The position numbers and the translations under genes were made by a program. Of a stretch of 62,572 bases of DNA, positions 10,293 to 62,151 are shown in pieces. The notes beneath the pieces are model-generated. The model was not told where the DNA came from and made no database searches. It saw nothing but the letters and a program-made list of their open reading frames with translations. The DNA comes from a virus (taxonomy: Duplodnaviria; Heunggongvirae; Uroviricota; Caudoviricetes), in IMG/VR virus record IMGVR_UViG_2671180890_000001, one strand, 5' to 3'. Positions within the stretch are counted from its first letter, which is position 1. Every line of letters begins with the position of its first letter.

Positions 10293-10301
10293 TTTTCTTC
10301 C

Positions 10302-12964: not shown

Positions 12965-12967
12965 TCC

Positions 12968-13000
12968 ACAAAAAAGCCCGCCTGAACCGGCGGGCTGTCA
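12968..13000 (-). terminator. Rho-independent terminator downstream of lom
   Basis: GCCCGCC/GGCGGGC stem followed by a T-run on the minus strand. Confidence 0.5.
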
Positions 13001-13022
13001 TAACACTGTGTTACCTGGCTAA

Positions 13023-13622: not shown

Positions 13623-13635
13623 AATTACCTCTCGC

Positions 13636-13668
13636 TTTTCTGCAATAAAAAAGGCGCCATTTCTGGCG
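13636..13668 (-). terminator. Rho-independent terminator downstream of J
   Basis: GGCGCCA-TTTC-TGGCGCC hairpin followed by a T-run on the minus strand. Confidence 0.45.
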
Positions 13669-13689
13669 CCCGTATCTGGGTTATAAAAT

Positions 13690-16600: not shown

Positions 16601-17085
16601 TGCGAGGTGGTTTTGCCCTTAATGGTGATGTCTTTTTCTGTCACCCAGCCACCGTTACGCTGTATCTGAACCAGCAGGCGGACTTCCGATGGATTCCTGT
16701 CCCCCTTTGAGGTGGTTTCCACCAGTGCCTGCACACCGAAGGTAAAGCGCAGACGGTCGATGTTTGCCGACGTGATGGTCCGGGTGATCGGCGTGTCATA
16801 TTTCACTTCCGTACCCAGCACCGTCTCGGAACCGGAGGATTCAAATCCCTCCGGCGGTGTCTGCTCCTGCTCACCTGCCCGGAACACCACCGTGACACCG
16901 GAGATGTTGGTATTCCCCTCACTGTCCAGCACCGGTGTACTGTTCAGCAGCACGCTTTTTAATCCATCCACCGGACCTTCAATCGGCCCTTCGCTGATGG
17001 CATCGATCACACTCAGTAACTGCGTGGATTTCAGGTTATCCTTCGCTTCGCGCGGGGTATGCCCCTTACTGCTGCCTTTACCCAT
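13690..17085 (-). CDS. J: Tail tip / host specificity protein J with a non-lambda C-terminal receptor-binding region
   Basis: 1131 aa; lambda J-like from [19 protein letters not shown] through about residue 980, then divergent last ~150 aa. Confidence 0.95.
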
Positions 17086-44923: not shown

Positions 44924-47900
44924 ATGACATTAAACGATTTCTATGCGGATCGCTTTGGCAGCGATCCGTTCTCGCTAATTGAAGCAGCACGGGATGAACT
45001 AACCGAGCTGGCACAGATGGCTGGTATCAACTGGCCTGCCTGTTCCGACAACATCCAACTCAACCCTCGCGGGGGGGTTGAGCGTTACTCTTCATACAAT
45101 AAAACATCTCCAGAAGCTCTCGAAAAGAGCCTGAAAGGACGCGTAGAAATTTACTCCAGGCTGGAACACAGCAAAGGGATTGATTACCCGTTCATTAACT
45201 TCGTCCATAAAGGCAGCGATGCTGGCTCATGGAGCGGTTTCTCCTTCCTGTTTTCTGAATATCGCCGTGAGCAACAACGGAATAATGCGACCGTGGTCGC
45301 ACAACCGGAAGAAGAACGGGAAAGAATAGAACGTCAGGCCGAAGCACGTCGTCGCCGTGAAGAACAAAAACGAATTAATGACCTGAAAAACAACCAAATG
45401 GACCATGAACGTTTGCTGGGATGGCTGGCATTCCACAGCGCGTGGGAACATGCTCCGGCTGAAGACGGCTCATGGCCATATGCGATTAAAAAAGGTATTC
45501 GTGACGTTTTTAGTTCATGTGATGTGCGTCGCGTGACCAGTCACGACAGTGCGAAATGGAGCCGGGGGCCAACCACATATATGGCTATCCCTCTGGCTCA
45601 CCTGGACAGTCGTTATGATGGTCGTATTGTGGGTTGGCAGCGAATCGACAAACAAGGTGGGAAATACCAGACCAGCGCAGTAACCAGCGGCGATTTCGTC
45701 GGTGCCTGCTTTGTTATCGGTGAGCTGAAAGGGGCGCAAAACATCGCTGTTACAGAAGGTTTTGCTACTGGTGCATCCATCTGGCTTGCCACGAAAAAAG
45801 ATAAACGCTTTGACGCTGTGGTTGTCGCTGTATCCGCTAACAACATGGTTCATGTTGTGGAACAACTGGTAAACATGTACCCGGCGGCAAAAATCACCTG
45901 CGCACTGGATAATGACCGGAAATCTGCCACAGAAGGAAAAGGGAATACCGGCCTGCGGACTGGCTATGAAATCTTATCGAAATTCAACGATGTCCGCTGC
46001 GTCTATCCAACTTTTGAAGACGATCCGCAAATGGAGTGCAGTGACTTCAACGACCTGCACAAACTACGTGGACTTCGTGAAACAGCACGTCAACTGTTTG
46101 CAACAGCAAACCGCCTGAAAACCGGTACTGATTTGCTATCTCTGACGCTCAACCGCCTGAAGACAATTAAGCGGGATAACCGTCGTACTTTTGCCAAAGA
46201 GCTGCTGAGAGCGGTGGATATTGGCATGCTAACCTGTCCGGTTCCTAACAGTCCGTCAGATTTATTTAACATGTTCTGCATCGTTCTGCGTGAAATGGGA
46301 CTGGAAAATATCTATCGTGCTACGGTAAAAGACCACATTGCCCGTCGCCTGAATAAAAAGTGCCGTATTGCCCAGGCTCCGCGCTCTTTCAGCGAACGCA
46401 TAACTGATCCCAATAAACGACCTCAACATATCACCTATAAGCGTTTTGAAACTTCGGTAATGACCGATGATGTCCTGAAGTACGTGCAATCACTACAGGG
46501 GATAGTCATCGTCCGTGCTGGTATGGGTTCCGGCAAATCTACTGGATTGTTACGACCGTTAATGCATAGCTCAGAACGTGGTATCTCTGTTGCTCACCGT
46601 GTCTCCCTTATTGGTGGCCTGTGGGAAATGATGACAGAAGGAAAAGGTGTAAAAGCCGATATCCTGCACTATCAGGATCCTGGCTATCAGGAAATGGCTC
46701 CATACGCCAGTAAACTGACCATCTGCATAAACTCGATTGTTAAAAACTGCTGGCAACCGTTGATGCGCCAGCACGACTATTTTGGCTTTGACGAGGCCAC
46801 ACAAGGGCTACGTGCCGTTCTTTCCGGTCGGGCTATGGAAAACCCGGTGGCTGTATTCAATACGCTAATTGACGCGCTGGCCAGAACGGAACAACACCCA
46901 ATCATGGTGGATGCTGATGCGAACGATCTGCTGGTTGACCTGGCTGAACTGGCTATGAAACGCCGTGAAGAACTAGGTTTACCGGCATGGCTGCAGATCC
47001 ACGTAATTGAATTACCTGTTGATGTTCGCAACCGCGAAACAGGTGAGCCAATCCGGGTTTTTTATACAGAAAAAGATCGCATCATGACCGAGGTGGTGAA
47101 AGCTGTATCGGATGGCGAAAAAATCATGTTGGCCACCGACAGCTCCACCTTTGCAGAAGATGTGACAGCCACCCTGAGAATGCATTTTCCTGGTAAGAAA
47201 TTTCTGTGTGTAAACCAGAAAAACAAACCAGAGCCAGAAGTTGAAGCATTTACCAATCAACCGAAAAAGATGGTCAAAAAATACGACGGCCTGATTTATA
47301 GCCCGTCTATTTCATCCGGCGTGTCGATTGAGCAAAAACATTTTGACCGTCATTTCGGCATGTTCTGTGGTGAAGTTGTACCCAGCGACGCAGTGCAAAT
47401 GCTACGCCGCGACCGTACAGCAAAAGAATTTATTATCGGCTTTGATAAAGCTCGTGCAAAACGTGAAACTGACCCGCAAAAAATAGAACGAGCATTCGCC
47501 CAGGCATTGCTTGCTACTGCAGGTATGAACGGTGAACTGACGGATGTCGTTTTCGATGGCGACCGTATATCAATGGGGGTGGCCAATACCGACTTTACCA
47601 GGATGAAAATTAAAGCAGCCGCAATTGAAGCGTCTGCACGTAACGACTACGCCAGCAACATGATCTGCATCATGCACAGCGACGGTTATAAGATATCGCC
47701 GCTGGCCACCGATTATGCTGCAAATGATATCGGTAAAGATCTGCGTAAAGAAGCGCGGGATATTGTGTGGGAACAGACACTGGATCTGCATCTCAATACA
47801 GAAACTCCACAAGAATCAGAGCGTGAAGAACTGCTAAAAAAACGCGCGCTGACGCTTGAAGAACAGGCAAAACTTGTCCGCTGGGATATTGAGAACGAAC

Positions 47901-48919
47901 TGAAACTACCGGTTGAAGAAGGCACGCTGAAATTCTATTTCGATGGTGCTCGAGACAAAGTTCGCCGCTATGAAACAATGCTTTTAGATGAGGTAACAGC
48001 TCGTCGTTACGACCGGGAAGAAGCAGCCATCAATTTTACCTACGCATACCGTCAGGCGGGACAGTGGCAATATTTTGTAGTGACCGCAATGACTCGCGAG
48101 CAGGCTGATGATGTCTTTAAAACTAAATTCCCTGGAATAATCGACTACAAGGTAAAAGCTACTCCTACTGTTGAAGTCGGGGCGCGCGGTTTCTATGCGC
48201 TTAAATCAGCAACTCTCCGGCAGTACTTTATCGACTGCGGTATCAACCCTGAGACTATGACCGGCGAGGCGACTCAGGAGCGTCTCAAATTTGCTCGAGA
48301 TAACCTCATGACAGCCGAACGCCGTGACCTGTTGAATAACGTTCTGCACATTGGTGGTTTTATGACGCCAAAAGGGAAGCCTAAAGTGCCGGAAGCGTTG
48401 TTTAAAAACATTTGCGACTCTCTTGGCCTTAAAACAGGTAAACGTCGCGGCAGAGACGGCGATAAGCGTCCAACCTTGCGTTTTGTTGAGCCTGAATCAG
48501 CGGCATTTATGCTGGATATTCTTGCTCAGCGTCAGAAAGATGGCCTAACCCTGAAAACGCGTAAAGCCGAGAAGACTGCCATCGAAATGGATCGCGATTT
48601 GGATCTCAATATATATATGGATGATAAAACGCGATCCACAAACGAGCAGGTTCAAAACGCCCCTCATTCAGTAATTTCTGAGGCTTTGGCTGTGTTGCCA
48701 GTGGTTGTACCTGAGTCCTGGGCGATGAGTGCGCTTTCCGGTGAGGAGCTGGCCACTATGTCATCATGGTCATCAGCTAGCATAGCTATGACGTTTGCAT
48801 CTCTGTACCTCACAGAGTTCATGGATCACTTATCCAGCAATGAACTGCGGCGGTTACGTGAATACATTACCGGGAATAGCCCATGCAGCTACGAAGAGCA
48901 GGGCGCTTTCTATGGGTAA
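44924..48919 (+). CDS. repA: RepA multifunctional replication protein (primase plus helicase), N15 RepA-like
   Basis: 1331 aa; TOPRIM-like CALDNDRK region; Walker A GMGSGKST. Confidence 0.9.
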   Translation: MTLNDFYADRFGSDPFSLIEAARDELTELAQMAGINWPACSDNIQLNPRGGVERYSSYNKTSPEALEKSLKGRVEIYSRLEHSKGIDYPFINFVHKGSDAGSWSGFSFLFSEYRREQQRNNATVVAQPEEERERIERQAEARRRREEQKRINDLKNNQMDHERLLGWLAFHSAWEHAPAEDGSWPYAIKKGIRDVFSSCDVRRVTSHDSAKWSRGPTTYMAIPLAHLDSRYDGRIVGWQRIDKQGGKYQTSAVTSGDFVGACFVIGELKGAQNIAVTEGFATGASIWLATKKDKRFDAVVVAVSANNMVHVVEQLVNMYPAAKITCALDNDRKSATEGKGNTGLRTGYEILSKFNDVRCVYPTFEDDPQMECSDFNDLHKLRGLRETARQLFATANRLKTGTDLLSLTLNRLKTIKRDNRRTFAKELLRAVDIGMLTCPVPNSPSDLFNMFCIVLREMGLENIYRATVKDHIARRLNKKCRIAQAPRSFSERITDPNKRPQHITYKRFETSVMTDDVLKYVQSLQGIVIVRAGMGSGKSTGLLRPLMHSSERGISVAHRVSLIGGLWEMMTEGKGVKADILHYQDPGYQEMAPYASKLTICINSIVKNCWQPLMRQHDYFGFDEATQGLRAVLSGRAMENPVAVFNTLIDALARTEQHPIMVDADANDLLVDLAELAMKRREELGLPAWLQIHVIELPVDVRNRETGEPIRVFYTEKDRIMTEVVKAVSDGEKIMLATDSSTFAEDVTATLRMHFPGKKFLCVNQKNKPEPEVEAFTNQPKKMVKKYDGLIYSPSISSGVSIEQKHFDRHFGMFCGEVVPSDAVQMLRRDRTAKEFIIGFDKARAKRETDPQKIERAFAQALLATAGMNGELTDVVFDGDRISMGVANTDFTRMKIKAAAIEASARNDYASNMICIMHSDGYKISPLATDYAANDIGKDLRKEARDIVWEQTLDLHLNTETPQESEREELLKKRALTLEEQAKLVRWDIENELKLPVEEGTLKFYFDGARDKVRRYETMLLDEVTARRYDREEAAINFTYAYRQAGQWQYFVVTAMTREQADDVFKTKFPGIIDYKVKATPTVEVGARGFYALKSATLRQYFIDCGINPETMTGEATQERLKFARDNLMTAERRDLLNNVLHIGGFMTPKGKPKVPEALFKNICDSLGLKTGKRRGRDGDKRPTLRFVEPESAAFMLDILAQRQKDGLTLKTRKAEKTAIEMDRDLDLNIYMDDKTRSTNEQVQNAPHSVISEALAVLPVVVPESWAMSALSGEELATMSSWSSASIAMTFASLYLTEFMDHLSSNELRRLREYITGNSPCSYEEQGAFYG
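45286..45301. promoter_or_regulatory. sopC-like centromere palindrome, site 5, inside repA codons 121-127
   Basis: TGCGACCGTGGTCGCA encoding NATVVAQ. Confidence 0.6.
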
Positions 48920-49103
48920 TCAGTGGATATTATCTTTGTGTCTCTTGCTTTGTGTGTTCCAGCAATGGTTTTGGTTCATAGATCGAAAGTCTCACAAGGA
49001 AAACATGAAGGCCAGGAAGGCGATGTTTCGTGGTGAACAACTCGCGCAGACTTATCGTATGTGGAAACGTTTCTATCGTGATTTTTCGGTGAACGGGGAG
49101 TAA
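48912..49103 (+). CDS. Hypothetical small membrane protein
   Basis: Internal Met MGNQWILSLCLLLC; overlaps repA stop. Confidence 0.4.
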   Translation: MGNQWILSLCLLLCVFQQWFWFIDRKSHKENMKARKAMFRGEQLAQTYRMWKRFYRDFSVNGE

Positions 49104-49107
49104 AAAT

Positions 49108-49434
49108 ATGTCTACTACTGCATTTTTGGACAAACTTGATTACCGTCAGCTGCAGTTTTGCCGGGATGAATGCGATCGACGCATTAAGGCTATCCAGGAG
49201 GAAGAAAAAAAGGTTGCCTGGGCTGTAACAGATCGTGGCCTTATCTTTGGCTGGTTCCGTACGGAGGATTATCTGAAAGCAGTGGAATTATTGGCGCGTG
49301 AGGCTGCTGAGCGTTGGGAACGAGCCGACAAGGAAAACCCGGAGACGAAGTATGAACTGAATCTCTACATCGAGGGCAACCGTCTACCATTGTCAGAGTA
49401 TAACGCTTTGTTTGCTGATGGTGAGTGGGGTTAA
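49108..49434 (+). CDS. Hypothetical protein
   Basis: 108 aa ORF. Confidence 0.5.
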   Translation: MSTTAFLDKLDYRQLQFCRDECDRRIKAIQEEEKKVAWAVTDRGLIFGWFRTEDYLKAVELLAREAAERWERADKENPETKYELNLYIEGNRLPLSEYNALFADGEWG

Positions 49435-49832
49435 AAATGGCTGTTCAATCATACAAATACGAATCCCCTTTGGATAAGGGATACATTCGTATCAAGTTAA
49501 GTCGTTCTCAACATAAGGCTATTTTTAAGGTAAGGAAAATTCGCATATTGGATGCGTATGCGTATTACTACAACGGTGAAAATGTTGTTGTTGAACACTT
49601 TCTTGCACGATGGTTTGTAGCTCTGATTTTTGTCCCTCTCCTGTTAATTGGTACTTTTGTGGATGGTTTTCCTAGTACATGGCGGGAGATAAAGAAAGGC
49701 CTATTCCCGCGTAAGTACGGCAGATTTTCGCAAGATAGCTGGCGAGTTATACCTGGTAAACATTCTGTGGATGAGCAGCCGATTGTTGATTACTGGTTGA
49801 AGCGTATGGCTGATGCTAAAAAAGTTGATTGA
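49425..49832 (+). CDS. Hypothetical membrane protein
   Basis: 135 aa ORF with a central hydrophobic segment. Confidence 0.5.
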   Translation: MGLKMAVQSYKYESPLDKGYIRIKLSRSQHKAIFKVRKIRILDAYAYYYNGENVVVEHFLARWFVALIFVPLLLIGTFVDGFPSTWREIKKGLFPRKYGRFSQDSWRVIPGKHSVDEQPIVDYWLKRMADAKKVD

Positions 49833-49921
49833 ATAGTGATGACTGTTCAAGTTAAACCGTTCTCGGCATATTTTATTTAATGGAATAACATATTATTAAT
49901 CAAATAGGTTAAGTTAATATT

Positions 49922-50734
49922 ATGCGTAACAAAAAAACAACAGCTTTATTACTCTCTATCTTGTTATTATCTGGATGCACTTATCAATATGATAATAAGG
50001 CATCAACGGACGTTGAGTATAAATTCGAAAAAGAAAAAAGAGTACCTATCAACTCTGTTGGTGATTTTAGCAGCAAAATACTCACAGGTAAGGAATTTAA
50101 TAGAATTATTGCATCAAAGATAGATGATGGTTCATGGCGTGGATATGTCGTTCACTCATTAACATACGCGCCATACAACAACGTTTTAACATCTCAAGGT
50201 TTGTCTATCCCTAGAAGTATCACATACTCAGGAACATATCTTAACCGTGATTTTGTTGAGAATAGCGGTAGTGATAGCGTGATAACATCTCGAGATATGT
50301 CTGGATGGTATGGTTTTCATGTCGATTCCTCTGAAATAACAAAGCATGGAAGCTATGTTGGTGCTAATGCTTTTGGAATATCTGCTGATGTAGAAGTGTT
50401 AAATACTTTAGGTGCCGAAATTATCTTTGGTAGTACACAAATAAATGAAGGGAACCCTGAAACAATATGGGCAGATATTGATATAAAAGGACAAATACCA
50501 AAAGATGTTAATGTAAAAGACCTTAGAATTGAATATTTAGCAAAGATAAATGGGTTAAGCAGTAATCATATTGATATAACATCACCTACTATTTTTAACC
50601 CGTCAGATATGAGCCATAAAACTCAGGTTTTTATGGGTGAGTTATTAGCCGCGCGCCTAATAAATATTAAAACGGGAGAAATTTATCCAGTACAGCTAGA
50701 GTGGGTGTTCCGTTCGCGTGAGGCTTTCTTATAA
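49922..50734 (+). CDS. Moron lipoprotein, function unknown
   Basis: 270 aa; signal peptide with lipobox LLSGC; strongly AT-rich gene. Confidence 0.6.
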   Translation: MRNKKTTALLLSILLLSGCTYQYDNKASTDVEYKFEKEKRVPINSVGDFSSKILTGKEFNRIIASKIDDGSWRGYVVHSLTYAPYNNVLTSQGLSIPRSITYSGTYLNRDFVENSGSDSVITSRDMSGWYGFHVDSSEITKHGSYVGANAFGISADVEVLNTLGAEIIFGSTQINEGNPETIWADIDIKGQIPKDVNVKDLRIEYLAKINGLSSNHIDITSPTIFNPSDMSHKTQVFMGELLAARLINIKTGEIYPVQLEWVFRSREAFL

Positions 50735-50864
50735 CGGAACAATAACATTGTTCATGTTCTGATCGTTTGTTCAAGCAAACTATAAAAACACCTGTCCCCG
50801 TGACTGGTCACGGGGTAAAATGTCTTTGCAAATTATTGACGTGTGCGTCGTTTTGGAGGTAAAG

Positions 50865-50950
50865 TCACCTCGCTGCGGTAAATCCCGCAGTCGGGACTTC
50901 GCAATCCTGGCAAAACGAAGCGCACAACACGCGCCAGCGTGTTTTTTTGT
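50865..50950 (+). ncRNA. Candidate c4-like cis-antisense regulatory RNA upstream of icd-ant
   Basis: TTGACG and TAAAGT promoter-like hexamers, CTGCGG/CCGCAG stem-loop, ACACGC/GCGTGT terminator plus T7; two 8 nt blocks complementary to a site about 100 nt downstream. Confidence 0.4.
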
Positions 50951-51111
50951 GTGTATAGACCTGCGCATATCCGAATTATGGTGGCTCAGGTGGGGCTGAC
51001 TTCGGTCGGGCCGGTTTCTTCGTTTACCGGTATTGCGAACCCCGCCTGGGCTACCACCAATAAAGAGATTCGCAACTCTGGTGGTAGCACGACCAATAAA
51101 ACGGAGTGCAT

Positions 51112-51279
51112 ACCATGTTCAAATTCAAATTTGCGGCAGTCGTTCGCACAGACAAAAAGTCCCACATTCATCATCTTTCCACTATCGCGTCATCTGAACG
51201 GGAAGCTCGTCGCCAGTTCGCCAGCCGGTTTGTCCTGGTATTGTCTGCCCGTATTCCGGTGCGCGAGGTGGCTGCATGA
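51112..51279 (+). CDS. icd: Icd-like cell division inhibitor (55 aa)
   Basis: MFKFKFAAVVRTDKK ... SSEREARRQFAS pattern; not in the ORF track because under 60 aa; coordinates approximate. Confidence 0.45.
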   Translation, partial: TMFKFKFAAVVRTDKKSHIHHLSTIASSEREARRQFASRFVLVLSARIPVREVAA

Positions 51280-51509
51280 ATCAGGTAAAAATGAACACTG
51301 TTGGCCTGCTGGAATCGTTGGATGAACGTCTGGCTCAGGTCTATGCGCTCGTATCATCAGCCCATCGGACAGTCTCCAGTTGTGAGGCGTCGATTTACCT
51401 CTCAGAGGCTGGAAAACTTCTGCAGATTGCGTGTGAGTTAACGCATGAAGCACAGGGATATTCTGCGTCTCTCTCGTCGCACTTGCTGCGCGATAAGGAG
51501 GCTGAATGA
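51276..51509 (+). CDS. Hypothetical protein in the antirepressor operon
   Basis: 77 aa ORF, translationally coupled to the flanking genes. Confidence 0.5.
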   Translation: MNQVKMNTVGLLESLDERLAQVYALVSSAHRTVSSCEASIYLSEAGKLLQIACELTHEAQGYSASLSSHLLRDKEAE

Positions 51510-52288
51510 GCGCGTTAGCAGTCTTTTCCTTTCAGGAAGAGCATCAGGTTCGTGTAGTGATGATTAACGGTGAGCCGTGGTTTGTGGCTAAGGATGTATG
51601 TGATGCTTTAAGACTCGTTAATTCCCGGAAGGCGCTAATGTCTCTGGATGAGGATGAAAAGGGTGTAACTTTAAGTTACACCCCTGGCGGAGAGCAAAAG
51701 CTAAATATTATTTCAGAGTCAGGTCTATACACCCTGATCCTCCGCTGCCGTGACGCGGTGAAGCAAGGCACAACAGCTTGGCGGTTTCGCAAATGGGTAA
51801 CGAACGAAGTCTTGCCCTCTATTCGCAAAAATGGAGAGTACGTTTACATCGAGCCTGAGCCAATGCGAGCAGCGGAGCCGTTGAACTGGAGGCAGAAAGA
51901 GTATCTGCGAGGGCTGATTAACGATATAGCACAAAGTTTTCAGTACCGAAATGCCTGGATTAGCGGTGTATGGTTAGCTTTGCGTCGGGCGTGTCGTAAT
52001 CCATCCCCGAACCCCATAACGGTTGATGATTTGCCAGCAATTACGGCAGAACTGCGCCGGATTTTGACGGCTGCTGAGTCGGCATTGGGGAACATGCGCA
52101 CGTATGAACGAGAGTTGTTGCGTGATGTTGTTCGTGGGGGTAGGCGGAGTATGTCGTGTGGTGATTTACCCATCACCGATATTAACTCTGATCTGGAAAA
52201 GGCGTTACCCGCGCATTTTGAACTGGCAGTTCAAAAACTTGAGCAGTTATCCGCGCAGCTAAAGCCAGCAGAAATCACCAATAAATAG
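51506..52288 (+). CDS. Antirepressor with Bro-N domain
   Basis: 260 aa; N-terminal FSFQEEHQVRVVMINGEPWFVAKDVCDAL. Confidence 0.75.
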   Translation: MSALAVFSFQEEHQVRVVMINGEPWFVAKDVCDALRLVNSRKALMSLDEDEKGVTLSYTPGGEQKLNIISESGLYTLILRCRDAVKQGTTAWRFRKWVTNEVLPSIRKNGEYVYIEPEPMRAAEPLNWRQKEYLRGLINDIAQSFQYRNAWISGVWLALRRACRNPSPNPITVDDLPAITAELRRILTAAESALGNMRTYERELLRDVVRGGRRSMSCGDLPITDINSDLEKALPAHFELAVQKLEQLSAQLKPAEITNK

Positions 52289-52459
52289 GGTTGACCAGCC
52301 CGAATTTATGCCCTTCTTAGAGAAGGGAAGCCTCGCAGTCGGGGCGGTGATGTCTGTGGTTGCAGCCGCGTTTCCTCCGTTACTTCTGCCCTTTGCAGGG
52401 GGCAGGCGAGGTAGGTCACACAACAAGGCACCGTTAATTCGGTGCCTTTACTGTATGCT

Positions 52460-54355
52460 TTAACCGAAATATGTCAGCCATGCTAACTGCATTGCTGACA
52501 TGGGGCTGTTTGCACTGCCGGACCACGCATAATTCTGGCCATTATAATGAAACTCAACAACGTATGAGCCATCACCAATATTTCTCACCGGCTTAAATAC
52601 CGGCTTAGATACAGGCGAAGAAGGTGCAGGCGGTTGCTGTTCTTCTACGCTATCTTCCTCTTCCTCTTCCTCTATCTCAATTTCGTCGTCATCCAGATCG
52701 TCATCCTCTGATAATTCATCCGCCAGTTCAGGTATTGCTTCCAGTTCTTCTTCGTCAGGCATAACGATTTCTGGAGTATCTATTTTCAGTTGCCATTGTC
52801 CGTTTTCGCCAACAAATTGCCCCAGAGCATCAGCAGCAAATTCCAGGTATCGACTAATCATTGTTGGGCTAAATTTGAACGCTCTTAGAGTGCTGTTCGT
52901 GATTTTTATAGAGGGGTCCTGCTCTACCAGCTGCTTAACTGTGTTATGCAGACGAACCCCGGCATCTCCTCTGGCGAATCCAGGCATTTCGTCATCAAGC
53001 TGCTGCAATGCTTCCAGCCTGGTATTTTCGTTTCCAGTATTTGGCCTCCATGTCTTTGAGAAGTTGGCCAGCTTGAATTGCTTATAGTGTAATTGAGTGT
53101 TTTCATCGTCATGGCCTAAAATTTCCATAAAGAAAACATCTTCATCTACGTTTTTCCAACGAGGATCTACGCGGAAAAACATTTCATACGCAATACGGGC
53201 ATAAATAGCACGACTATCTTTATAAACACGGCGGTCATCTTTGAAAAATGATTTAACCCACGGGTTAAAAGCCTTTGCTAATATGGCATTAATACGTCCG
53301 TTTTCAGAGCGTGTGTCGTTATCTCCATAACCTTTAACGACATCATCAAAATCAGATGCTGCTGGGCATGAGCGAAGTACATTTATTAAATAAACAAATG
53401 TTTTTGCTTCGCATAATGTATATATTTTTCTGGTTATATCATCAGAAGTTCTTTTTTTAGCTTGGCCTAAAAAATCAACGGTATACTTACCAGAAACAGT
53501 AAATGTACCTTGATACATAATCTCAATCATTCGTCTTCCTGACAATGCAGCAAGTGCAAATGCCAAAGGAGCCATACCTGAACGAGTGTTTAGATTATTT
53601 AATGTAGCAGGGCTATTTATAATATCGTAAATAGCTTGCATATATTTAGGGTAATCAATGACCACCACGTTACGTTTCTTATTGTGCAGAACGTCCGCCC
53701 ATCGTTGCTGGATAGATGCACGTTCGGCAGGGCTTAGTTGAAGATGATAGAGAATCTCATGGTTAACTTTTAGCTGATTCAACTCCTCAAGTAAGGCAGA
53801 TCCTTGCTGTAGTAATTTATATAAATAATCGCGCTTATCTTTCCAGTTATCGCTAGTTAAATCAGAAATGGCGAATTGCCACTCTTTATATTTATTTGAT
53901 AATTTCAATAACTTATTATGACTTTTGTTATCGCCAATTCTGATATTAGATAAATCTTCTGATAGAGGGAGAATTAATTTTAATTTTGCCTGTAAAGCTG
54001 ACATTCTCTGGCGAATATCGGCAGCAGGTAGAGAAAGCCATGACAATAGCTCCTCATTATATAAAGGATACTTTTCAGATAGGCGATGTATATTTTTTTC
54101 AAAGCTATGATGAAGTTTATCATCAAACCGTTTTCTGGCCCTGCTCATATAGGCATTGAATGTGTTGGCTGTAATTCTTTTTTCTAATCCTTTCCCCCTA
54201 AACTTTCGCTTGTCATTAAATAATGCATTTTTAAATTTTAATGCAACAGCCTTTATTTTTTTTGTTTTCTCCCCTTGAGGACGGTCAGAGTTATCTATTG
54301 ACTCAACATCGCTAACAAGTGAGTTTATTAATTCACCGATTTTTACTTTGCTCAT
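52460..54355 (-). CDS. telN: Protelomerase TelN
   Basis: 631 aa; adjacent to the telomere palindrome; N15 TelN-like length and position. Confidence 0.9.
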   Translation of the reverse strand: MSKVKIGELINSLVSDVESIDNSDRPQGEKTKKIKAVALKFKNALFNDKRKFRGKGLEKRITANTFNAYMSRARKRFDDKLHHSFEKNIHRLSEKYPLYNEELLSWLSLPAADIRQRMSALQAKLKLILPLSEDLSNIRIGDNKSHNKLLKLSNKYKEWQFAISDLTSDNWKDKRDYLYKLLQQGSALLEELNQLKVNHEILYHLQLSPAERASIQQRWADVLHNKKRNVVVIDYPKYMQAIYDIINSPATLNNLNTRSGMAPLAFALAALSGRRMIEIMYQGTFTVSGKYTVDFLGQAKKRTSDDITRKIYTLCEAKTFVYLINVLRSCPAASDFDDVVKGYGDNDTRSENGRINAILAKAFNPWVKSFFKDDRRVYKDSRAIYARIAYEMFFRVDPRWKNVDEDVFFMEILGHDDENTQLHYKQFKLANFSKTWRPNTGNENTRLEALQQLDDEMPGFARGDAGVRLHNTVKQLVEQDPSIKITNSTLRAFKFSPTMISRYLEFAADALGQFVGENGQWQLKIDTPEIVMPDEEELEAIPELADELSEDDDLDDDEIEIEEEEEEDSVEEQQPPAPSSPVSKPVFKPVRNIGDGSYVVEFHYNGQNYAWSGSANSPMSAMQLAWLTYFG

Positions 54356-54525
54356 CTTTCCTCTCCTGATTATCCGCTCGGATTATCGTAACACAATTTG
54401 AGAATAAGATAACTAATAACGCGTTAACTTAGGCACAAACTAACAGAACACAACAACGGATAATAAATAAAAACACAATATCGGAACGTTAAAATTTGTT
54501 CCTTGACTTTGTTCTGAAAATCAGC

Positions 54526-54567
54526 ACATAATTCCCCATTATACGCACGTATAATGGGGAATTATGT
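54526..54567. repeat. Right hairpin telomere (telR) read-through: same 20 bp arms around a CA centre at 54546-54547
   Basis: ACATAATTCCCCATTATACG-CA-CGTATAATGGGGAATTATGT. Confidence 0.85.
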
Positions 54568-54737
54568 GCTGATTTTCAGAACAAAGTCAAGGAACAAATT
54601 TTAACGTTCCGATATTGTGTTTTTATTTATTATCCGTTGTTGTGTTCTGTTAGTTTGTGCCTAAGTTAACGCGTTATTAGTTATCTTATTCTCAAATTGT
54701 GTTACGATAATCCGAGCGGATAATCAGGAGAGGAAAG

Positions 54738-56633
54738 ATGAGCAAAGTAAAAATCGGTGAATTAATAAACTCACTTGTTAGCGATGTTGAGTCAATAGAT
54801 AACTCTGACCGTCCTCAAGGGGAGAAAACAAAAAAAATAAAGGCTGTTGCATTAAAATTTAAAAATGCATTATTTAATGACAAGCGAAAGTTTAGGGGGA
54901 AAGGATTAGAAAAAAGAATTACAGCCAACACATTCAATGCCTATATGAGCAGGGCCAGAAAACGGTTTGATGATAAACTTCATCATAGCTTTGAAAAAAA
55001 TATACATCGCCTATCTGAAAAGTATCCTTTATATAATGAGGAGCTATTGTCATGGCTTTCTCTACCTGCTGCCGATATTCGCCAGAGAATGTCAGCTTTA
55101 CAGGCAAAATTAAAATTAATTCTCCCTCTATCAGAAGATTTATCTAATATCAGAATTGGCGATAACAAAAGTCATAATAAGTTATTGAAATTATCAAATA
55201 AATATAAAGAGTGGCAATTCGCCATTTCTGATTTAACTAGCGATAACTGGAAAGATAAGCGCGATTATTTATATAAATTACTACAGCAAGGATCTGCCTT
55301 ACTTGAGGAGTTGAATCAGCTAAAAGTTAACCATGAGATTCTCTATCATCTTCAACTAAGCCCTGCCGAACGTGCATCTATCCAGCAACGATGGGCGGAC
55401 GTTCTGCACAATAAGAAACGTAACGTGGTGGTCATTGATTACCCTAAATATATGCAAGCTATTTACGATATTATAAATAGCCCTGCTACATTAAATAATC
55501 TAAACACTCGTTCAGGTATGGCTCCTTTGGCATTTGCACTTGCTGCATTGTCAGGAAGACGAATGATTGAGATTATGTATCAAGGTACATTTACTGTTTC
55601 TGGTAAGTATACCGTTGATTTTTTAGGCCAAGCTAAAAAAAGAACTTCTGATGATATAACCAGAAAAATATATACATTATGCGAAGCAAAAACATTTGTT
55701 TATTTAATAAATGTACTTCGCTCATGCCCAGCAGCATCTGATTTTGATGATGTCGTTAAAGGTTATGGAGATAACGACACACGCTCTGAAAACGGACGTA
55801 TTAATGCCATATTAGCAAAGGCTTTTAACCCGTGGGTTAAATCATTTTTCAAAGATGACCGCCGTGTTTATAAAGATAGTCGTGCTATTTATGCCCGTAT
55901 TGCGTATGAAATGTTTTTCCGCGTAGATCCTCGTTGGAAAAACGTAGATGAAGATGTTTTCTTTATGGAAATTTTAGGCCATGACGATGAAAACACTCAA
56001 TTACACTATAAGCAATTCAAGCTGGCCAACTTCTCAAAGACATGGAGGCCAAATACTGGAAACGAAAATACCAGGCTGGAAGCATTGCAGCAGCTTGATG
56101 ACGAAATGCCTGGATTCGCCAGAGGAGATGCCGGGGTTCGTCTGCATAACACAGTTAAGCAGCTGGTAGAGCAGGACCCCTCTATAAAAATCACGAACAG
56201 CACTCTAAGAGCGTTCAAATTTAGCCCAACAATGATTAGTCGATACCTGGAATTTGCTGCTGATGCTCTGGGGCAATTTGTTGGCGAAAACGGACAATGG
56301 CAACTGAAAATAGATACTCCAGAAATCGTTATGCCTGACGAAGAAGAACTGGAAGCAATACCTGAACTGGCGGATGAATTATCAGAGGATGACGATCTGG
56401 ATGACGACGAAATTGAGATAGAGGAAGAGGAAGAGGAAGATAGCGTAGAAGAACAGCAACCGCCTGCACCTTCTTCGCCTGTATCTAAGCCGGTATTTAA
56501 GCCGGTGAGAAATATTGGTGATGGCTCATACGTTGTTGAGTTTCATTATAATGGCCAGAATTATGCGTGGTCCGGCAGTGCAAACAGCCCCATGTCAGCA
56601 ATGCAGTTAGCATGGCTGACATATTTCGGTTAA
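54738..56633 (+). CDS. telN: Protelomerase TelN (fold-back copy)
   Basis: Identical 631 aa translation. Confidence 0.85.
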   Translation: MSKVKIGELINSLVSDVESIDNSDRPQGEKTKKIKAVALKFKNALFNDKRKFRGKGLEKRITANTFNAYMSRARKRFDDKLHHSFEKNIHRLSEKYPLYNEELLSWLSLPAADIRQRMSALQAKLKLILPLSEDLSNIRIGDNKSHNKLLKLSNKYKEWQFAISDLTSDNWKDKRDYLYKLLQQGSALLEELNQLKVNHEILYHLQLSPAERASIQQRWADVLHNKKRNVVVIDYPKYMQAIYDIINSPATLNNLNTRSGMAPLAFALAALSGRRMIEIMYQGTFTVSGKYTVDFLGQAKKRTSDDITRKIYTLCEAKTFVYLINVLRSCPAASDFDDVVKGYGDNDTRSENGRINAILAKAFNPWVKSFFKDDRRVYKDSRAIYARIAYEMFFRVDPRWKNVDEDVFFMEILGHDDENTQLHYKQFKLANFSKTWRPNTGNENTRLEALQQLDDEMPGFARGDAGVRLHNTVKQLVEQDPSIKITNSTLRAFKFSPTMISRYLEFAADALGQFVGENGQWQLKIDTPEIVMPDEEELEAIPELADELSEDDDLDDDEIEIEEEEEEDSVEEQQPPAPSSPVSKPVFKPVRNIGDGSYVVEFHYNGQNYAWSGSANSPMSAMQLAWLTYFG

Positions 56634-56804
56634 AGCATACAGTAAAGGCACCGAATTAACGGTGCCTTGTTGTGTGACCTACCTCGCCTGCCCCCTGCAA
56701 AGGGCAGAAGTAACGGAGGAAACGCGGCTGCAACCACAGACATCACCGCCCCGACTGCGAGGCTTCCCTTCTCTAAGAAGGGCATAAATTCGGGCTGGTC
56801 AACC

Positions 56805-57587
56805 CTATTTATTGGTGATTTCTGCTGGCTTTAGCTGCGCGGATAACTGCTCAAGTTTTTGAACTGCCAGTTCAAAATGCGCGGGTAACGCCTTTTCCAG
56901 ATCAGAGTTAATATCGGTGATGGGTAAATCACCACACGACATACTCCGCCTACCCCCACGAACAACATCACGCAACAACTCTCGTTCATACGTGCGCATG
57001 TTCCCCAATGCCGACTCAGCAGCCGTCAAAATCCGGCGCAGTTCTGCCGTAATTGCTGGCAAATCATCAACCGTTATGGGGTTCGGGGATGGATTACGAC
57101 ACGCCCGACGCAAAGCTAACCATACACCGCTAATCCAGGCATTTCGGTACTGAAAACTTTGTGCTATATCGTTAATCAGCCCTCGCAGATACTCTTTCTG
57201 CCTCCAGTTCAACGGCTCCGCTGCTCGCATTGGCTCAGGCTCGATGTAAACGTACTCTCCATTTTTGCGAATAGAGGGCAAGACTTCGTTCGTTACCCAT
57301 TTGCGAAACCGCCAAGCTGTTGTGCCTTGCTTCACCGCGTCACGGCAGCGGAGGATCAGGGTGTATAGACCTGACTCTGAAATAATATTTAGCTTTTGCT
57401 CTCCGCCAGGGGTGTAACTTAAAGTTACACCCTTTTCATCCTCATCCAGAGACATTAGCGCCTTCCGGGAATTAACGAGTCTTAAAGCATCACATACATC
57501 CTTAGCCACAAACCACGGCTCACCGTTAATCATCACTACACGAACCTGATGCTCTTCCTGAAAGGAAAAGACTGCTAACGCGCTCAT
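56805..57587 (-). CDS. Bro-N antirepressor (fold-back copy)
   Basis: Identical 260 aa translation. Confidence 0.7.
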   Translation of the reverse strand: MSALAVFSFQEEHQVRVVMINGEPWFVAKDVCDALRLVNSRKALMSLDEDEKGVTLSYTPGGEQKLNIISESGLYTLILRCRDAVKQGTTAWRFRKWVTNEVLPSIRKNGEYVYIEPEPMRAAEPLNWRQKEYLRGLINDIAQSFQYRNAWISGVWLALRRACRNPSPNPITVDDLPAITAELRRILTAAESALGNMRTYERELLRDVVRGGRRSMSCGDLPITDINSDLEKALPAHFELAVQKLEQLSAQLKPAEITNK

Positions 57588-57817
57588 TCAGCCTCCTTAT
57601 CGCGCAGCAAGTGCGACGAGAGAGACGCAGAATATCCCTGTGCTTCATGCGTTAACTCACACGCAATCTGCAGAAGTTTTCCAGCCTCTGAGAGGTAAAT
57701 CGACGCCTCACAACTGGAGACTGTCCGATGGGCTGATGATACGAGCGCATAGACCTGAGCCAGACGTTCATCCAACGATTCCAGCAGGCCAACAGTGTTC
57801 ATTTTTACCTGATTCAT
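57584..57817 (-). CDS. Hypothetical 77 aa protein (fold-back copy of 51276..51509)
   Basis: Identical translation. Confidence 0.45.
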   Translation of the reverse strand: MNQVKMNTVGLLESLDERLAQVYALVSSAHRTVSSCEASIYLSEAGKLLQIACELTHEAQGYSASLSSHLLRDKEAE

Positions 57818-58357
57818 GCAGCCACCTCGCGCACCGGAATACGGGCAGACAATACCAGGACAAACCGGCTGGCGAACTGGCGACGAGCTTCCCGTTCAGA
57901 TGACGCGATAGTGGAAAGATGATGAATGTGGGACTTTTTGTCTGTGCGAACGACTGCCGCAAATTTGAATTTGAACATGGTATGCACTCCGTTTTATTGG
58001 TCGTGCTACCACCAGAGTTGCGAATCTCTTTATTGGTGGTAGCCCAGGCGGGGTTCGCAATACCGGTAAACGAAGAAACCGGCCCGACCGAAGTCAGCCC
58101 CACCTGAGCCACCATAATTCGGATATGCGCAGGTCTATACACACAAAAAAACACGCTGGCGCGTGTTGTGCGCTTCGTTTTGCCAGGATTGCGAAGTCCC
58201 GACTGCGGATTTACCGCAGCGAGGTGACTTTACCTCCAAAACGACGCACACGTCAATAATTTGCAAAGACATTTTACCCCGTGACCAGTCACGGGGACAG
58301 GTGTTTTTATAGTTTGCTTGAACAAACGATCAGAACATGAACAATGTTATTGTTCCG

Positions 58358-59170
58358 TTATAAGAAAGCCTCACGCGAACGGAACACCCACTCTAGCTGT
58401 ACTGGATAAATTTCTCCCGTTTTAATATTTATTAGGCGCGCGGCTAATAACTCACCCATAAAAACCTGAGTTTTATGGCTCATATCTGACGGGTTAAAAA
58501 TAGTAGGTGATGTTATATCAATATGATTACTGCTTAACCCATTTATCTTTGCTAAATATTCAATTCTAAGGTCTTTTACATTAACATCTTTTGGTATTTG
58601 TCCTTTTATATCAATATCTGCCCATATTGTTTCAGGGTTCCCTTCATTTATTTGTGTACTACCAAAGATAATTTCGGCACCTAAAGTATTTAACACTTCT
58701 ACATCAGCAGATATTCCAAAAGCATTAGCACCAACATAGCTTCCATGCTTTGTTATTTCAGAGGAATCGACATGAAAACCATACCATCCAGACATATCTC
58801 GAGATGTTATCACGCTATCACTACCGCTATTCTCAACAAAATCACGGTTAAGATATGTTCCTGAGTATGTGATACTTCTAGGGATAGACAAACCTTGAGA
58901 TGTTAAAACGTTGTTGTATGGCGCGTATGTTAATGAGTGAACGACATATCCACGCCATGAACCATCATCTATCTTTGATGCAATAATTCTATTAAATTCC
59001 TTACCTGTGAGTATTTTGCTGCTAAAATCACCAACAGAGTTGATAGGTACTCTTTTTTCTTTTTCGAATTTATACTCAACGTCCGTTGATGCCTTATTAT
59101 CATATTGATAAGTGCATCCAGATAATAACAAGATAGAGAGTAATAAAGCTGTTGTTTTTTTGTTACGCAT
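58358..59170 (-). CDS. Moron lipoprotein (fold-back copy)
   Basis: Identical 270 aa translation. Confidence 0.55.
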   Translation of the reverse strand: MRNKKTTALLLSILLLSGCTYQYDNKASTDVEYKFEKEKRVPINSVGDFSSKILTGKEFNRIIASKIDDGSWRGYVVHSLTYAPYNNVLTSQGLSIPRSITYSGTYLNRDFVENSGSDSVITSRDMSGWYGFHVDSSEITKHGSYVGANAFGISADVEVLNTLGAEIIFGSTQINEGNPETIWADIDIKGQIPKDVNVKDLRIEYLAKINGLSSNHIDITSPTIFNPSDMSHKTQVFMGELLAARLINIKTGEIYPVQLEWVFRSREAFL

Positions 59171-59259
59171 AATATTAACTTAACCTATTTGATTAATAAT
59201 ATGTTATTCCATTAAATAAAATATGCCGAGAACGGTTTAACTTGAACAGTCATCACTAT

Positions 59260-59667
59260 TCAATCAACTTTTTTAGCATCAGCCATACGCTTCAACCAGT
59301 AATCAACAATCGGCTGCTCATCCACAGAATGTTTACCAGGTATAACTCGCCAGCTATCTTGCGAAAATCTGCCGTACTTACGCGGGAATAGGCCTTTCTT
59401 TATCTCCCGCCATGTACTAGGAAAACCATCCACAAAAGTACCAATTAACAGGAGAGGGACAAAAATCAGAGCTACAAACCATCGTGCAAGAAAGTGTTCA
59501 ACAACAACATTTTCACCGTTGTAGTAATACGCATACGCATCCAATATGCGAATTTTCCTTACCTTAAAAATAGCCTTATGTTGAGAACGACTTAACTTGA
59601 TACGAATGTATCCCTTATCCAAAGGGGATTCGTATTTGTATGATTGAACAGCCATTTTTAACCCCAC
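59260..59667 (-). CDS. Hypothetical membrane protein (fold-back copy of 49425..49832)
   Basis: Identical translation. Confidence 0.45.
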   Translation of the reverse strand: MGLKMAVQSYKYESPLDKGYIRIKLSRSQHKAIFKVRKIRILDAYAYYYNGENVVVEHFLARWFVALIFVPLLLIGTFVDGFPSTWREIKKGLFPRKYGRFSQDSWRVIPGKHSVDEQPIVDYWLKRMADAKKVD

Positions 59668-59984
59668 TCACCATCAGCAAACAAAGCGTTATACTCTGAC
59701 AATGGTAGACGGTTGCCCTCGATGTAGAGATTCAGTTCATACTTCGTCTCCGGGTTTTCCTTGTCGGCTCGTTCCCAACGCTCAGCAGCCTCACGCGCCA
59801 ATAATTCCACTGCTTTCAGATAATCCTCCGTACGGAACCAGCCAAAGATAAGGCCACGATCTGTTACAGCCCAGGCAACCTTTTTTTCTTCCTCCTGGAT
59901 AGCCTTAATGCGTCGATCGCATTCATCCCGGCAAAACTGCAGCTGACGGTAATCAAGTTTGTCCAAAAATGCAGTAGTAGACAT
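59658..59984 (-). CDS. Hypothetical protein (fold-back copy of 49108..49434)
   Basis: Identical translation. Confidence 0.45.
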   Translation of the reverse strand: MSTTAFLDKLDYRQLQFCRDECDRRIKAIQEEEKKVAWAVTDRGLIFGWFRTEDYLKAVELLAREAAERWERADKENPETKYELNLYIEGNRLPLSEYNALFADGEWG

Positions 59985-60172
59985 ATTTTTACTCCCCGTT
60001 CACCGAAAAATCACGATAGAAACGTTTCCACATACGATAAGTCTGCGCGAGTTGTTCACCACGAAACATCGCCTTCCTGGCCTTCATGTTTTCCTTGTGA
60101 GACTTTCGATCTATGAACCAAAACCATTGCTGGAACACACAAAGCAAGAGACACAAAGATAATATCCACTGA

Positions 60173-62151
60173 TTACCCATAGAAAGCGCCCTGCTCTTCG
60201 TAGCTGCATGGGCTATTCCCGGTAATGTATTCACGTAACCGCCGCAGTTCATTGCTGGATAAGTGATCCATGAACTCTGTGAGGTACAGAGATGCAAACG
60301 TCATAGCTATGCTAGCTGATGACCATGATGACATAGTGGCCAGCTCCTCACCGGAAAGCGCACTCATCGCCCAGGACTCAGGTACAACCACTGGCAACAC
60401 AGCCAAAGCCTCAGAAATTACTGAATGAGGGGCGTTTTGAACCTGCTCGTTTGTGGATCGCGTTTTATCATCCATATATATATTGAGATCCAAATCGCGA
60501 TCCATTTCGATGGCAGTCTTCTCGGCTTTACGCGTTTTCAGGGTTAGGCCATCTTTCTGACGCTGAGCAAGAATATCCAGCATAAATGCCGCTGATTCAG
60601 GCTCAACAAAACGCAAGGTTGGACGCTTATCGCCGTCTCTGCCGCGACGTTTACCTGTTTTAAGGCCAAGAGAGTCGCAAATGTTTTTAAACAACGCTTC
60701 CGGCACTTTAGGCTTCCCTTTTGGCGTCATAAAACCACCAATGTGCAGAACGTTATTCAACAGGTCACGGCGTTCGGCTGTCATGAGGTTATCTCGAGCA
60801 AATTTGAGACGCTCCTGAGTCGCCTCGCCGGTCATAGTCTCAGGGTTGATACCGCAGTCGATAAAGTACTGCCGGAGAGTTGCTGATTTAAGCGCATAGA
60901 AACCGCGCGCCCCGACTTCAACAGTAGGAGTAGCTTTTACCTTGTAGTCGATTATTCCAGGGAATTTAGTTTTAAAGACATCATCAGCCTGCTCGCGAGT
61001 CATTGCGGTCACTACAAAATATTGCCACTGTCCCGCCTGACGGTATGCGTAGGTAAAATTGATGGCTGCTTCTTCCCGGTCGTAACGACGAGCTGTTACC
61101 TCATCTAAAAGCATTGTTTCATAGCGGCGAACTTTGTCTCGAGCACCATCGAAATAGAATTTCAGCGTGCCTTCTTCAACCGGTAGTTTCAGTTCGTTCT
61201 CAATATCCCAGCGGACAAGTTTTGCCTGTTCTTCAAGCGTCAGCGCGCGTTTTTTAGCAGTTCTTCACGCTCTGATTCTTGTGGAGTTTCTGTATTGAGA
61301 TGCAGATCCAGTGTCTGTTCCCACACAATATCCCGCGCTTCTTTACGCAGATCTTTACCGATATCATTTGCAGCATAATCGGTGGCCAGCGGCGATATCT
61401 TATAACCGTCGCTGTGCATGATGCAGATCATGTTGCTGGCGTAGTCGTTACGTGCAGACGCTTCAATTGCGGCTGCTTTAATTTTCATCCTGGTAAAGTC
61501 GGTATTGGCCACCCCCATTGATATACGGTCGCCATCGAAAACGACATCCGTCAGTTCACCGTTCATACCTGCAGTAGCAAGCAATGCCTGGGCGAATGCT
61601 CGTTCTATTTTTTGCGGGTCAGTTTCACGTTTTGCACGAGCTTTATCAAAGCCGATAATAAATTCTTTTGCTGTACGGTCGCGGCGTAGCATTTGCACTG
61701 CGTCGCTGGGTACAACTTCACCACAGAACATGCCGAAATGACGGTCAAAATGTTTTTGCTCAATCGACACGCCGGATGAAATAGACGGGCTATAAATCAG
61801 GCCGTCGTATTTTTTGACCATCTTTTTCGGTTGATTGGTAAATGCTTCAACTTCTGGCTCTGGTTTGTTTTTCTGGTTTACACACAGAAATTTCTTACCA
61901 GGAAAATGCATTCTCAGGGTGGCTGTCACATCTTCTGCAAAGGTGGAGCTGTCGGTGGCCAACATGATTTTTTCGCCATCCGATACAGCTTTCACCACCT
62001 CGGTCATGATGCGATCTTTTTCTGTATAAAAAACCCGGATTGGCTCACCTGTTTCGCGGTTGCGAACATCAACAGGTAATTCAATTACGTGGATCTGCAG
62101 CCATGCCGGTAAACCTAGTTCTTCACGGCGTTTCATAGCCAGTTCAGCCAG
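60173..62151 (-). pseudogene. repA: repA 3' two thirds, fold-back copy, frameshifted (T6 here versus A7 in the primary copy near 47838) and truncated at the chimeric junction
   Basis: ORFs 60173..61114 and 61240..62136 match RepA residues from about 673 onward in two frames. Confidence 0.75.

Follow-up and report, generated by a model that had tools for sequence, protein, structure and literature searches.

What does a sharply AT-rich lipoprotein gene contribute to the N15-like linear plasmid-prophage that carries it? The gene lies at 49922–50734 on the + strand of IMG/VR record IMGVR_UViG_2671180890_000001, a 62,572-nucleotide stretch of Caudoviricetes DNA that we refer to as the window. A sequence-only reading had described it as a moron whose product might mediate superinfection exclusion or receptor masking. 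We find good support for the view that the gene was acquired horizontally and forms an accessory cassette of the plasmid-prophage, and the comparisons below establish its product as an autonomous accessory envelope protein that mobile elements have captured repeatedly, at known sites for lysogen-expressed cargo. Envelope-level exclusion of incoming phages is the best-supported function, although it is inferred from context alone and we put it forward tentatively.

A variable cassette next to repA

The locus has the following features, in window coordinates.

49848–50756, + strand: variable cargo cassette of 909 bp with a guanine-plus-cytosine (GC) content of 0.343, its boundaries set by BLAST against PV340565
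49833–49921, + strand: AT-rich intergenic region upstream of the gene, with a weak Shine-Dalgarno sequence (AGG at 49906–49908, AAG at 49911–49913)
49922–50734, + strand: prolipoprotein coding sequence, 270 residues, called as an open reading frame, with a long competing frame on neither strand
49922–49978, + strand: signal peptide II with lipobox LLSG-C, MRNKKTTALLLSILLLSGC, by a rule-based check

The closest deposited phage is Escherichia phage PhiR46_1 (PV340565), which is 99% identical to the window across the shared parts. Window positions 48801–49847 and 50757–51601 align with it at 98.6%, and the middle does not align; at the position of the cassette PhiR46_1 has 322 bp encoding a 95-residue secreted protein. 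Within PLSDB, the full cassette is present in six Escherichia N15-like plasmids and the flanks occur without it in about 18 plasmids of Escherichia coli and Shigella, which is the comparison among related phage-plasmids that the sequence-only reading had proposed. The alternative gene was confirmed in two flank-only plasmids that were checked, and its copies are located as follows.

3861–4148 of L001 (PhiR46_1): alternative 95-residue gene
1442–1729 of L032: alternative 95-residue gene
1439–1726 of L033: alternative 95-residue gene

The region of the lipoprotein gene is identical in E. albertii plasmid pEA8_3, and a 59%-identical version occupies the same slot of a different N15-like backbone (Enterobacter, metagenomes). 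In E. albertii p2011C-4180-1 an otherwise 100%-identical gene has an IS2 insertion at its 5' end that removes the signal peptide (L031 1629–3652); this natural knockout is tolerated, and the lipoprotein gene is therefore dispensable for the element.

The gene has a GC content of 0.353, and 0.258 at third codon positions, compared with 0.494 for the replicon and 0.48–0.49 for repA and ant, and the earlier description of a sharply AT-rich segment stands. The same deficit recurs at 14 further loci, with the gene 4–20 points under its surroundings at all 15 loci measured. The designation as a moron thus holds in part. Presence and absence among close relatives (the 99%-identical PhiR46_1 and the roughly 18 plasmids), the deviating base composition and the IS2 knockout all agree with an accessory cassette. 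Neither a promoter nor a terminator belonging to the gene was detected, and in the strict (Juhala/Hendrix) sense, which asks for both, the gene does not appear to be a moron.

The gene is flanked by small genes 3' of repA (108 and 135 residues) and by a C4 antisense RNA (Rfam RF01695, 82.3 bits), in agreement with the position first described for it. All genes from repA through ant are co-oriented with it, and read-through from the repA operon would be the simplest route to its expression, which could be expected in the lysogen because the repA operon must be transcribed for plasmid maintenance. The upstream intergenic region is near-identical in the allele of E. fergusonii. Among homologues 53–63% identical, synonymous sites are saturated and the rate of non-synonymous change (dN) is only 0.23–0.47; this is therefore a real gene under purifying selection. 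We attribute to chance a match to Rfam snoZ196 inside the reading frame (E 0.094, 30 bits compared with a gathering score of 55).

The E. fergusonii allele, 96% identical, differs by 15 synonymous and 11 non-synonymous codons. Seven of the 11 amino acid differences (D135G, K141T, S144N, A148V, F151L, E176K and G177E) are clustered at residues 135–151 and 176–177 (window 50324–50374 and 50447–50452), and F151L falls inside the family signature described below. These residues may form a variable interaction surface; the sequences are too few for a test of positive selection.

The alternative occupant of the slot bears on function as well. The 95-residue protein has a Sec signal peptide, VKSFILVLCFAFSAAVYA, before QED..., together with several cysteines, and is a second uncharacterised exported cargo protein in the slot; that it too is exported we count in favour of an envelope role. 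The label 'Spackle exclusion protein' given to it in PV340565 is unsupported by Pfam, by PHROG function and by a PDB sequence search. In the Klebsiella telomere phage NAR688, the RepA-to-protelomerase region holds a telocin and its immunity protein, both found in the lysogen proteome (PMC12042878); by analogy, the window gene may be expressed from the repressed prophage, as is expected of a moron. Such TelA/ImmA loci resemble the window cassette in lying in the same region, in varying between close relatives and in being expressed in lysogens (PMC12042878); they differ from it in that the window cassette comprises one lipoprotein gene and no partner toxin, its product being unlike pore-forming bacteriocins or four-helix immunity proteins.

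These occupants suggest that the lipoprotein could itself be a periplasmic immunity protein or inhibitor that neutralises an incoming toxin or enzyme active at the envelope, for instance a type VI effector, a bacteriocin (or telocin) or a peptidoglycan hydrolase of phage or host origin. The telocin-immunity pairs in the same slot favour this, as does the fact that small Col-type plasmids, on which relatives are found, classically carry bacteriocin immunity, and the annotation of the alternative allele in PV340565 as Spackle, a lysozyme inhibitor, points the same way. However, a toxin gene accompanies the family in none of the contexts, the Spackle label is without the support of the searches just given, and known immunity proteins against pore formers are helical proteins of the inner membrane. 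We regard this explanation as improbable.

Export, lipidation and fold of the protein family

We applied a PROSITE-PS51257-type rule, which asks for a positively charged n-region, a hydrophobic h-region and a lipobox [LVI][ASTVI][GAS]C with the cysteine at position 15–35. The window protein passes with R2, K4 and K5, a hydrophobic core and L-S-G-C, which upholds the original call of a signal peptide with an LLSGC lipobox. Cys19 is the predicted lipidation site and is at least 90% conserved in the family, and 17 of 19 relatives also pass the rule. In E. coli, the Lol system sorts lipoproteins to the outer membrane where the +2 residue is not Asp. The window protein has Thr at +2, which predicts Lol-dependent sorting to the outer membrane, and Asp is found at this position in none of the 19 relatives.

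An AlphaFold2 model built on 18 sequences (predicted local distance difference test score, pLDDT, 85.1; predicted template modelling score, pTM, 0.77) has a disordered tether at about residues 20–37 followed by a beta-rich globular domain at 38–270, with one long helix and a beta-rich body whose strands are 18–21 residues long. Foldseek comparison of the model with PDB and BFVD returned nothing at E ≤ 0.001, and the predicted fold thus appears to be without detectable relatives among solved or viral structures. Sequence searches of Pfam (E ≤ 0.1), NCBIfam and PDB likewise gave no match, and PHROGs gave only a marginal match to a family of similar length and unknown function. Homology to a characterised periplasmic enzyme, the finding that would have counted most directly against the sequence-only reading, was thus looked for in Pfam, NCBIfam and PDB, and by structure in PDB and BFVD, and was not found.

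A profile search of 1.84 billion representative proteins yielded only 20 matches at E ≤ 0.001, all of them labelled hypothetical. A profile search of genome contigs with alignment A1 found no relatives; the search with alignment A5 gave distant matches only, and with these the family extends beyond Enterobacterales, its members being spread over Enterobacterales, Xanthomonas, Sphingobium, Comamonadaceae, Dechloromonas, cyanobacteria (Nostocales), Chitinophagaceae and Terracidiphilus. All members of the wider family have a signal peptide and the signature Y-x-G-x-N-A-[FY]-G, and Pfam matches none of them. The full signature is Y-x-[GA]-x-N-A-[FY]-G ... P-T-x(3)-P ... [LI]-x-A-A-R-L, to which the window protein conforms, its first part reading Y145-x-G-x-N149-A150-F-G152. 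An alignment of 21 sequences from several phyla shows no variation at Y145, N149, A150 and G152 and at least 90% conservation at T223 and P227. We conclude that this is a new, previously unannotated family of exported proteins.

The same 21 sequences share no conserved catalytic-type set of His, Asp, Ser or Cys residues. Together with the lack of an enzyme family match, this conservation pattern points to a putative binding protein rather than an enzyme. Many of the distant relatives have two further conserved cysteines, which fits an oxidising location outside the cytoplasm.

Two weaker similarities were considered and set aside. HMMER matches of residues 194–231 to giant proteins with PKD/Ig-domain repeats (P0013, P0024) reflect local beta-strand similarity and not homology. 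A role in lysis was raised by weak PHROG matches to an Rz-like spanin and to a 'lipoprotein' family; these cover the signal peptide only, and the gene is not part of a lysis cassette and stands alone on plasmids.

Mobile-element contexts and candidate functions

The settings in which relatives occur are our chief evidence on function. On small plasmids of 2.4–4.4 kb from Klebsiella, Enterobacter, Salmonella and E. coli, a family member is the sole gene besides those for replication and mobilisation; these copies are 60–63% identical to the window protein, with one at 27%. A protein that is the only cargo of so small a plasmid therefore acts autonomously and benefits its carrier. Upstream plasmid genes of 143 and 194 residues were considered as partners and rejected; they resemble winged-helix Rep or regulator proteins and hence belong to the backbone.

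Several carriers are mobilisable plasmids of MOBP or ColE1 type with the gene beside relaxase, NikA or MbeD/MobD genes, an arrangement that would suit entry or surface exclusion, in which the lipoprotein would block conjugative or mobilised DNA in the manner of TraT. The window protein shares with TraT a length of about 245–270 residues, a predicted place among outer-membrane lipoproteins, carriage on plasmids and, as proposed here, a protective function. In contrast to TraT, it gives no match to Pfam TraT (PF05818), and its family is found mainly on phages and non-conjugative plasmids. Most of the contexts are non-conjugative prophages and phage-plasmids, and some small carriers lack mobilisation genes altogether (a 2.4-kb contig with a Rep-like gene and the lipoprotein gene, and a 2.7-kb ColRNAI plasmid). 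With TraT homology missing as well, entry exclusion is very improbable.

Every one of the seven siphophage prophage loci examined has the family member within its tail module, and in six of them the distance to the tape-measure gene is at most one gene. The gene orders are as follows.

L038 (Klebsiella michiganensis), L042 (metagenomic phage) and L047 (Providencia): T, family member, tape-measure gene
L041 (Serratia): tape-measure gene, family member, M
L046: tape-measure gene, M, family member, L
L017: tape-measure gene, gene for a 138-residue protein, family member
L025: K..lom..ant, family member, I, J, with a Lom/Ail-like gene nearby

The first order places the family member at the site of the HK97 gp15 exclusion moron, HK97 gene 15 being the founding moron (PMC3594210). 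HK97 gp15 mediates superinfection exclusion by blocking genome injection, with a specificity that depends on the tail (PMC3594210). Three unrelated prophages have relatives exactly at the gp15 site, between the T chaperone gene and the tape-measure gene, and others are within one gene of the tape-measure gene; both genes are AT-rich additions, and action at the envelope, known for gp15, would extend to the lipoprotein. The two differ in that gp15 is a small inner-membrane protein related to YebO and non-homologous to the lipoprotein, which has 270 residues and is predicted to be in the outer membrane, and in that the window gene occupies the slot between RepA and the anti-repressor and not a tail operon.

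Other contexts are also those of mobile cargo. In a Xanthomonas prophage the relative is directly downstream of, and co-oriented with, an S24 CI-type repressor gene, which we take to be a rexAB-type position, and another relative adjoins resolvase and relaxase genes on a mobilisable element.

Two further contexts were recorded by eye. In a Dechloromonas metagenome-assembled genome (L064 5353–7037), the family member overlaps by 4 nt a downstream open reading frame whose product begins ...FFVSYAH..., an N-terminus that looks like a TIR domain, and IS66-type genes follow. In the viral contig UViG_3300037833_000028 of IMG/VR (L055 3081–8260), the family member is one of four consecutive genes for proteins with signal peptides; the run follows XRE-type repressor-like and ImmA/IrrE-like genes, and an integrase-like gene is at the end of the contig.

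Isolates from blood, urine and faeces are found among the carriers in E. coli, E. albertii, Klebsiella and Enterobacter, which is one point in favour of a host-fitness or virulence lipoprotein, conferring serum or complement resistance, adhesion or tolerance of envelope stress in the manner of Bor/Iss, TraT or Lom. Such factors are encoded at the same kinds of site, with Lom in the window phage itself and the Lom/Ail-like gene near the L025 relative, and carriage as the sole cargo of a small plasmid would fit any trait that benefits the host. However, there is no similarity to TraT or to a comparable Pfam or PHROG family, and relatives occur in environmental non-pathogens (Sphingobium, cyanobacteria, Chitinophagaceae, Dechloromonas), in which a role in host interaction could not be general. 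We consider a fitness or virulence function quite unlikely.

The sequence-only reading also named receptor masking, which we consider in the style of Cor and Llp, in which the lipoprotein would bind the periplasmic face of an outer-membrane receptor for phages or colicins and lock out adsorption, thereby protecting lysogens and sparing progeny phages from loss on cell debris. Cor (N15, phi80, T1, HK022) and Llp (T5) are, like the window protein, accessory lipoproteins of phages or prophages with a classical lipobox (LLLSGC in N15 Cor) and a predicted outer-membrane location. A Cor homologue is missing from the window phage, and the C-terminus of its J bears no relation to that of N15 J, which binds FhuA, so that a different exclusion factor might be expected; moreover, the L025 relative is directly upstream of the tail-tip genes I and J. 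Against this, a tblastn search of the window with N15 Cor gave no match at E ≤ 1, and no Cor family of PHROG or Pfam was matched. Cor (78 residues) and Llp, with about 60 residues each in the mature form, are exceeded three- to fourfold in size by the mature window protein (about 250 residues), which is unrelated to them in sequence. Over 30 kb separate the window gene from J, and the type of J C-terminus does not follow the presence of the gene: lipoprotein-positive elements have at least two to three types of J C-terminus, and negative elements share the type of the window. The gene next to the family member in six of the seven siphophage loci is, furthermore, the tape-measure gene and not a receptor-binding gene. 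Masking of this kind is doubtful, although a Cor-like role directed at a different receptor is a rival to be reckoned with.

A block after adsorption seems likelier than masking of the element's own receptor because the recurrent neighbours are tape-measure and not receptor-binding genes, because J C-terminus types do not follow the presence of the lipoprotein, and because plasmids without a phage of their own carry the lipoprotein gene as their one cargo. In outline, after export and lipidation at Cys19 the product would be delivered to the outer membrane, its inferred location, leaving a beta-rich domain of about 230 residues, with no recognisable catalytic motif, in the periplasm on a short flexible tether. 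There it would shield the carrier cell from incoming phages, as superinfection exclusion or as defence, probably by interfering in the periplasm with siphophage genome delivery mediated by the tail tip or the tape-measure protein. In Streptococcus phage TP-J34, the lipoprotein Ltp prevents injection of DNA by way of the tape-measure protein. Like the window protein it is a prophage lipoprotein encoded in a lysogeny or accessory position, and the mode proposed for it, a tape-measure-dependent block to entry from outside the cytoplasmic membrane, is the one that we favour here; it differs in its Gram-positive host and helical-repeat fold and is not known to be homologous. In proposed action the window protein thus comes nearest to Cor and Llp, HK97 gp15 and Ltp, while it is a member of none of these families.

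A bolder proposal, which we consider speculative and on balance doubtful, is that the lipidated enterobacterial branch of this multi-phylum exported family, with its unseen fold, represents a new class of periplasmic anti-phage barrier that intercepts siphophage genome ejection, mediated by tape measure or tail tip, in the periplasm. Such a barrier would explain both insertion beside tape-measure genes and sole carriage on plasmids of 2.4–4.4 kb.

Several observations weigh against exclusion as the function. The link to the tape-measure step is one of gene adjacency only. Sites in tail modules or next to repressors also host other morons, such as Lom and Bor, and context therefore does not tell exclusion apart from other roles at the envelope; Lom is already present beside J in the window phage. 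There is no homology to Cor, TraT or Spackle, no PHROG family annotated as exclusion was matched, and no defence-protein model of PADLOC-DB 2.0 gave a match at E ≤ 1. Literature searches by protein accession, and for small-plasmid lipoproteins and phage resistance, returned no experimental phenotype or relevant report. Relatives in distant phyla have mixed contexts that include toxin-antitoxin-like genes, transposases and housekeeping genes. We assume expression in the lysogen, no promoter or terminator of the gene's own having been detected: a scan of the + strand of 49833–49921 found no consensus sigma-70 site, and only partial -10-like hexamers in AT-rich sequence. Of the two functions first suggested for the gene, exclusion and receptor masking, what stands is that the family occupies classic exclusion and lysogen-expressed sites; homology to Cor, TraT or an exclusion PHROG and co-variation with J were not found, and the suggestion is plausible.

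Exclusion at the envelope is the layer of phage defence that has been catalogued least, its proteins being small, diverse and invisible to searches for defence islands. The family described here is a candidate for which the structural model is confident, known relatives are lacking and the comparative-genomic signature is very clear. If it does block genome entry, it would be a new outer-membrane or periplasmic player in the poorly understood crossing of the periplasm by siphophage DNA and would provide a handle on tape-measure function; it would also explain the upkeep of some 'cryptic' small plasmids of Enterobacteriaceae and be relevant to the host range of therapeutic phages. If a phage phenotype is absent, this would be an ordinary lysogenic-conversion gene. 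In either case it is a new, unannotated family within a known kind of element, the lysogenic-conversion lipoproteins of prophages and plasmids; the gene is unsurprising in kind and is a clean, testable candidate for an envelope-level anti-phage function.

The immunity locus and the host element

Downstream of the cassette, the window contains the following features.

50796–50815 (approximate), no strand assigned: GC-rich inverted repeat CCCCGTGAC-TG-GTCACGGGG, a predicted hairpin
50836–51061, + strand: neighbouring immunity locus overall
50836–50865, + strand: promoter-like site, from a promoter scan
50872–50947, + strand: isrK/c4-target-like leader and terminator (Rfam RF01394, 52.8 bits)
50974–51061, + strand: C4 antisense RNA (Rfam RF01695, 82.3 bits compared with a gathering score of 45)

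The hairpin had been taken as the lipoprotein gene's own terminator, an assignment that we do not retain. It exists but lies beyond the right cassette boundary (50756/50757), and it is kept in all five aligned N15-like elements (the window, PhiR46_1, YDC107_1, N15 and L004), whichever gene is upstream. It is followed by TAAAATG with no U-run and was not flagged in a terminator scan. We conclude that it is conserved N15-type backbone upstream of the anti-repressor promoter. The block 50757–50870 as a whole is strongly conserved in the five elements, comprising TTCTGATC...AAGCAAACTATAAAAACACCTGT, the hairpin CCCCGTGACTGGTCACGGGG with its perfect palindrome, TAAAAT and a promoter-like site, TTGACG-18-TAAAGT. 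Its appearance suggests an operator or regulatory element that serves the anti-repressor (C4) operon, and not a terminator.

The isrK match is narrowly above its gathering score of 50 and overlaps a sub-threshold match to a c4-a1b1 target. A strong terminator at 50926–50943, followed by a T-run, ends the leader and matches the terminator annotated in N15. The C4 RNA starts 240 nt after the lipoprotein stop codon, and downstream of it are genes for an Icd-like protein, a 77-residue protein and a Bro-N anti-repressor, as seen from PHROG and Pfam matches.

The remaining landmarks of the plasmid-prophage are as follows.

44924–48919: RepA (1331 residues)
52460–54355, - strand: protelomerase
58358–59170, - strand: mirror-image second copy of the lipoprotein gene, from an inverted self-match and the list of open reading frames
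9252–17085, - strand: lambda-type J (1131 residues), Lom and side tail fibre genes
13023–13622: Lom, beside J

Both hairpin telomeres are read through in the window assembly, giving inverted duplications at 46940–62151 and at 62152–62572/1–12754. BLAST self-comparison gives an inverted match over 46940–62151 at 99.96% identity, centred at about 54545 beside telN; the other duplication is centred at about 6166 beside sopAB, and the ends of the window join as a circle. The real replicon has a length of about 48.4 kb. Because the assembly crosses a hairpin telomere, the lipoprotein gene appears a second time as a mirror image and not as a paralogue. The mirrored copy of repA (60173–62136) contains frame breaks, and the same read-through artefact is present in IMG/VR contig UViG_3300045988_113976 (L020/L021).

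The C-termini of J are mosaic between otherwise similar plasmids. Finally, 48.5-kb N15-like plasmids that share the same J segment, all at one percent identity value, are filed under Salmonella enterica, Stenotrophomonas maltophilia and Paenibacillus sonchi. S. maltophilia and P. sonchi are implausible as hosts, which suggests that their records are contaminated or mislabelled.

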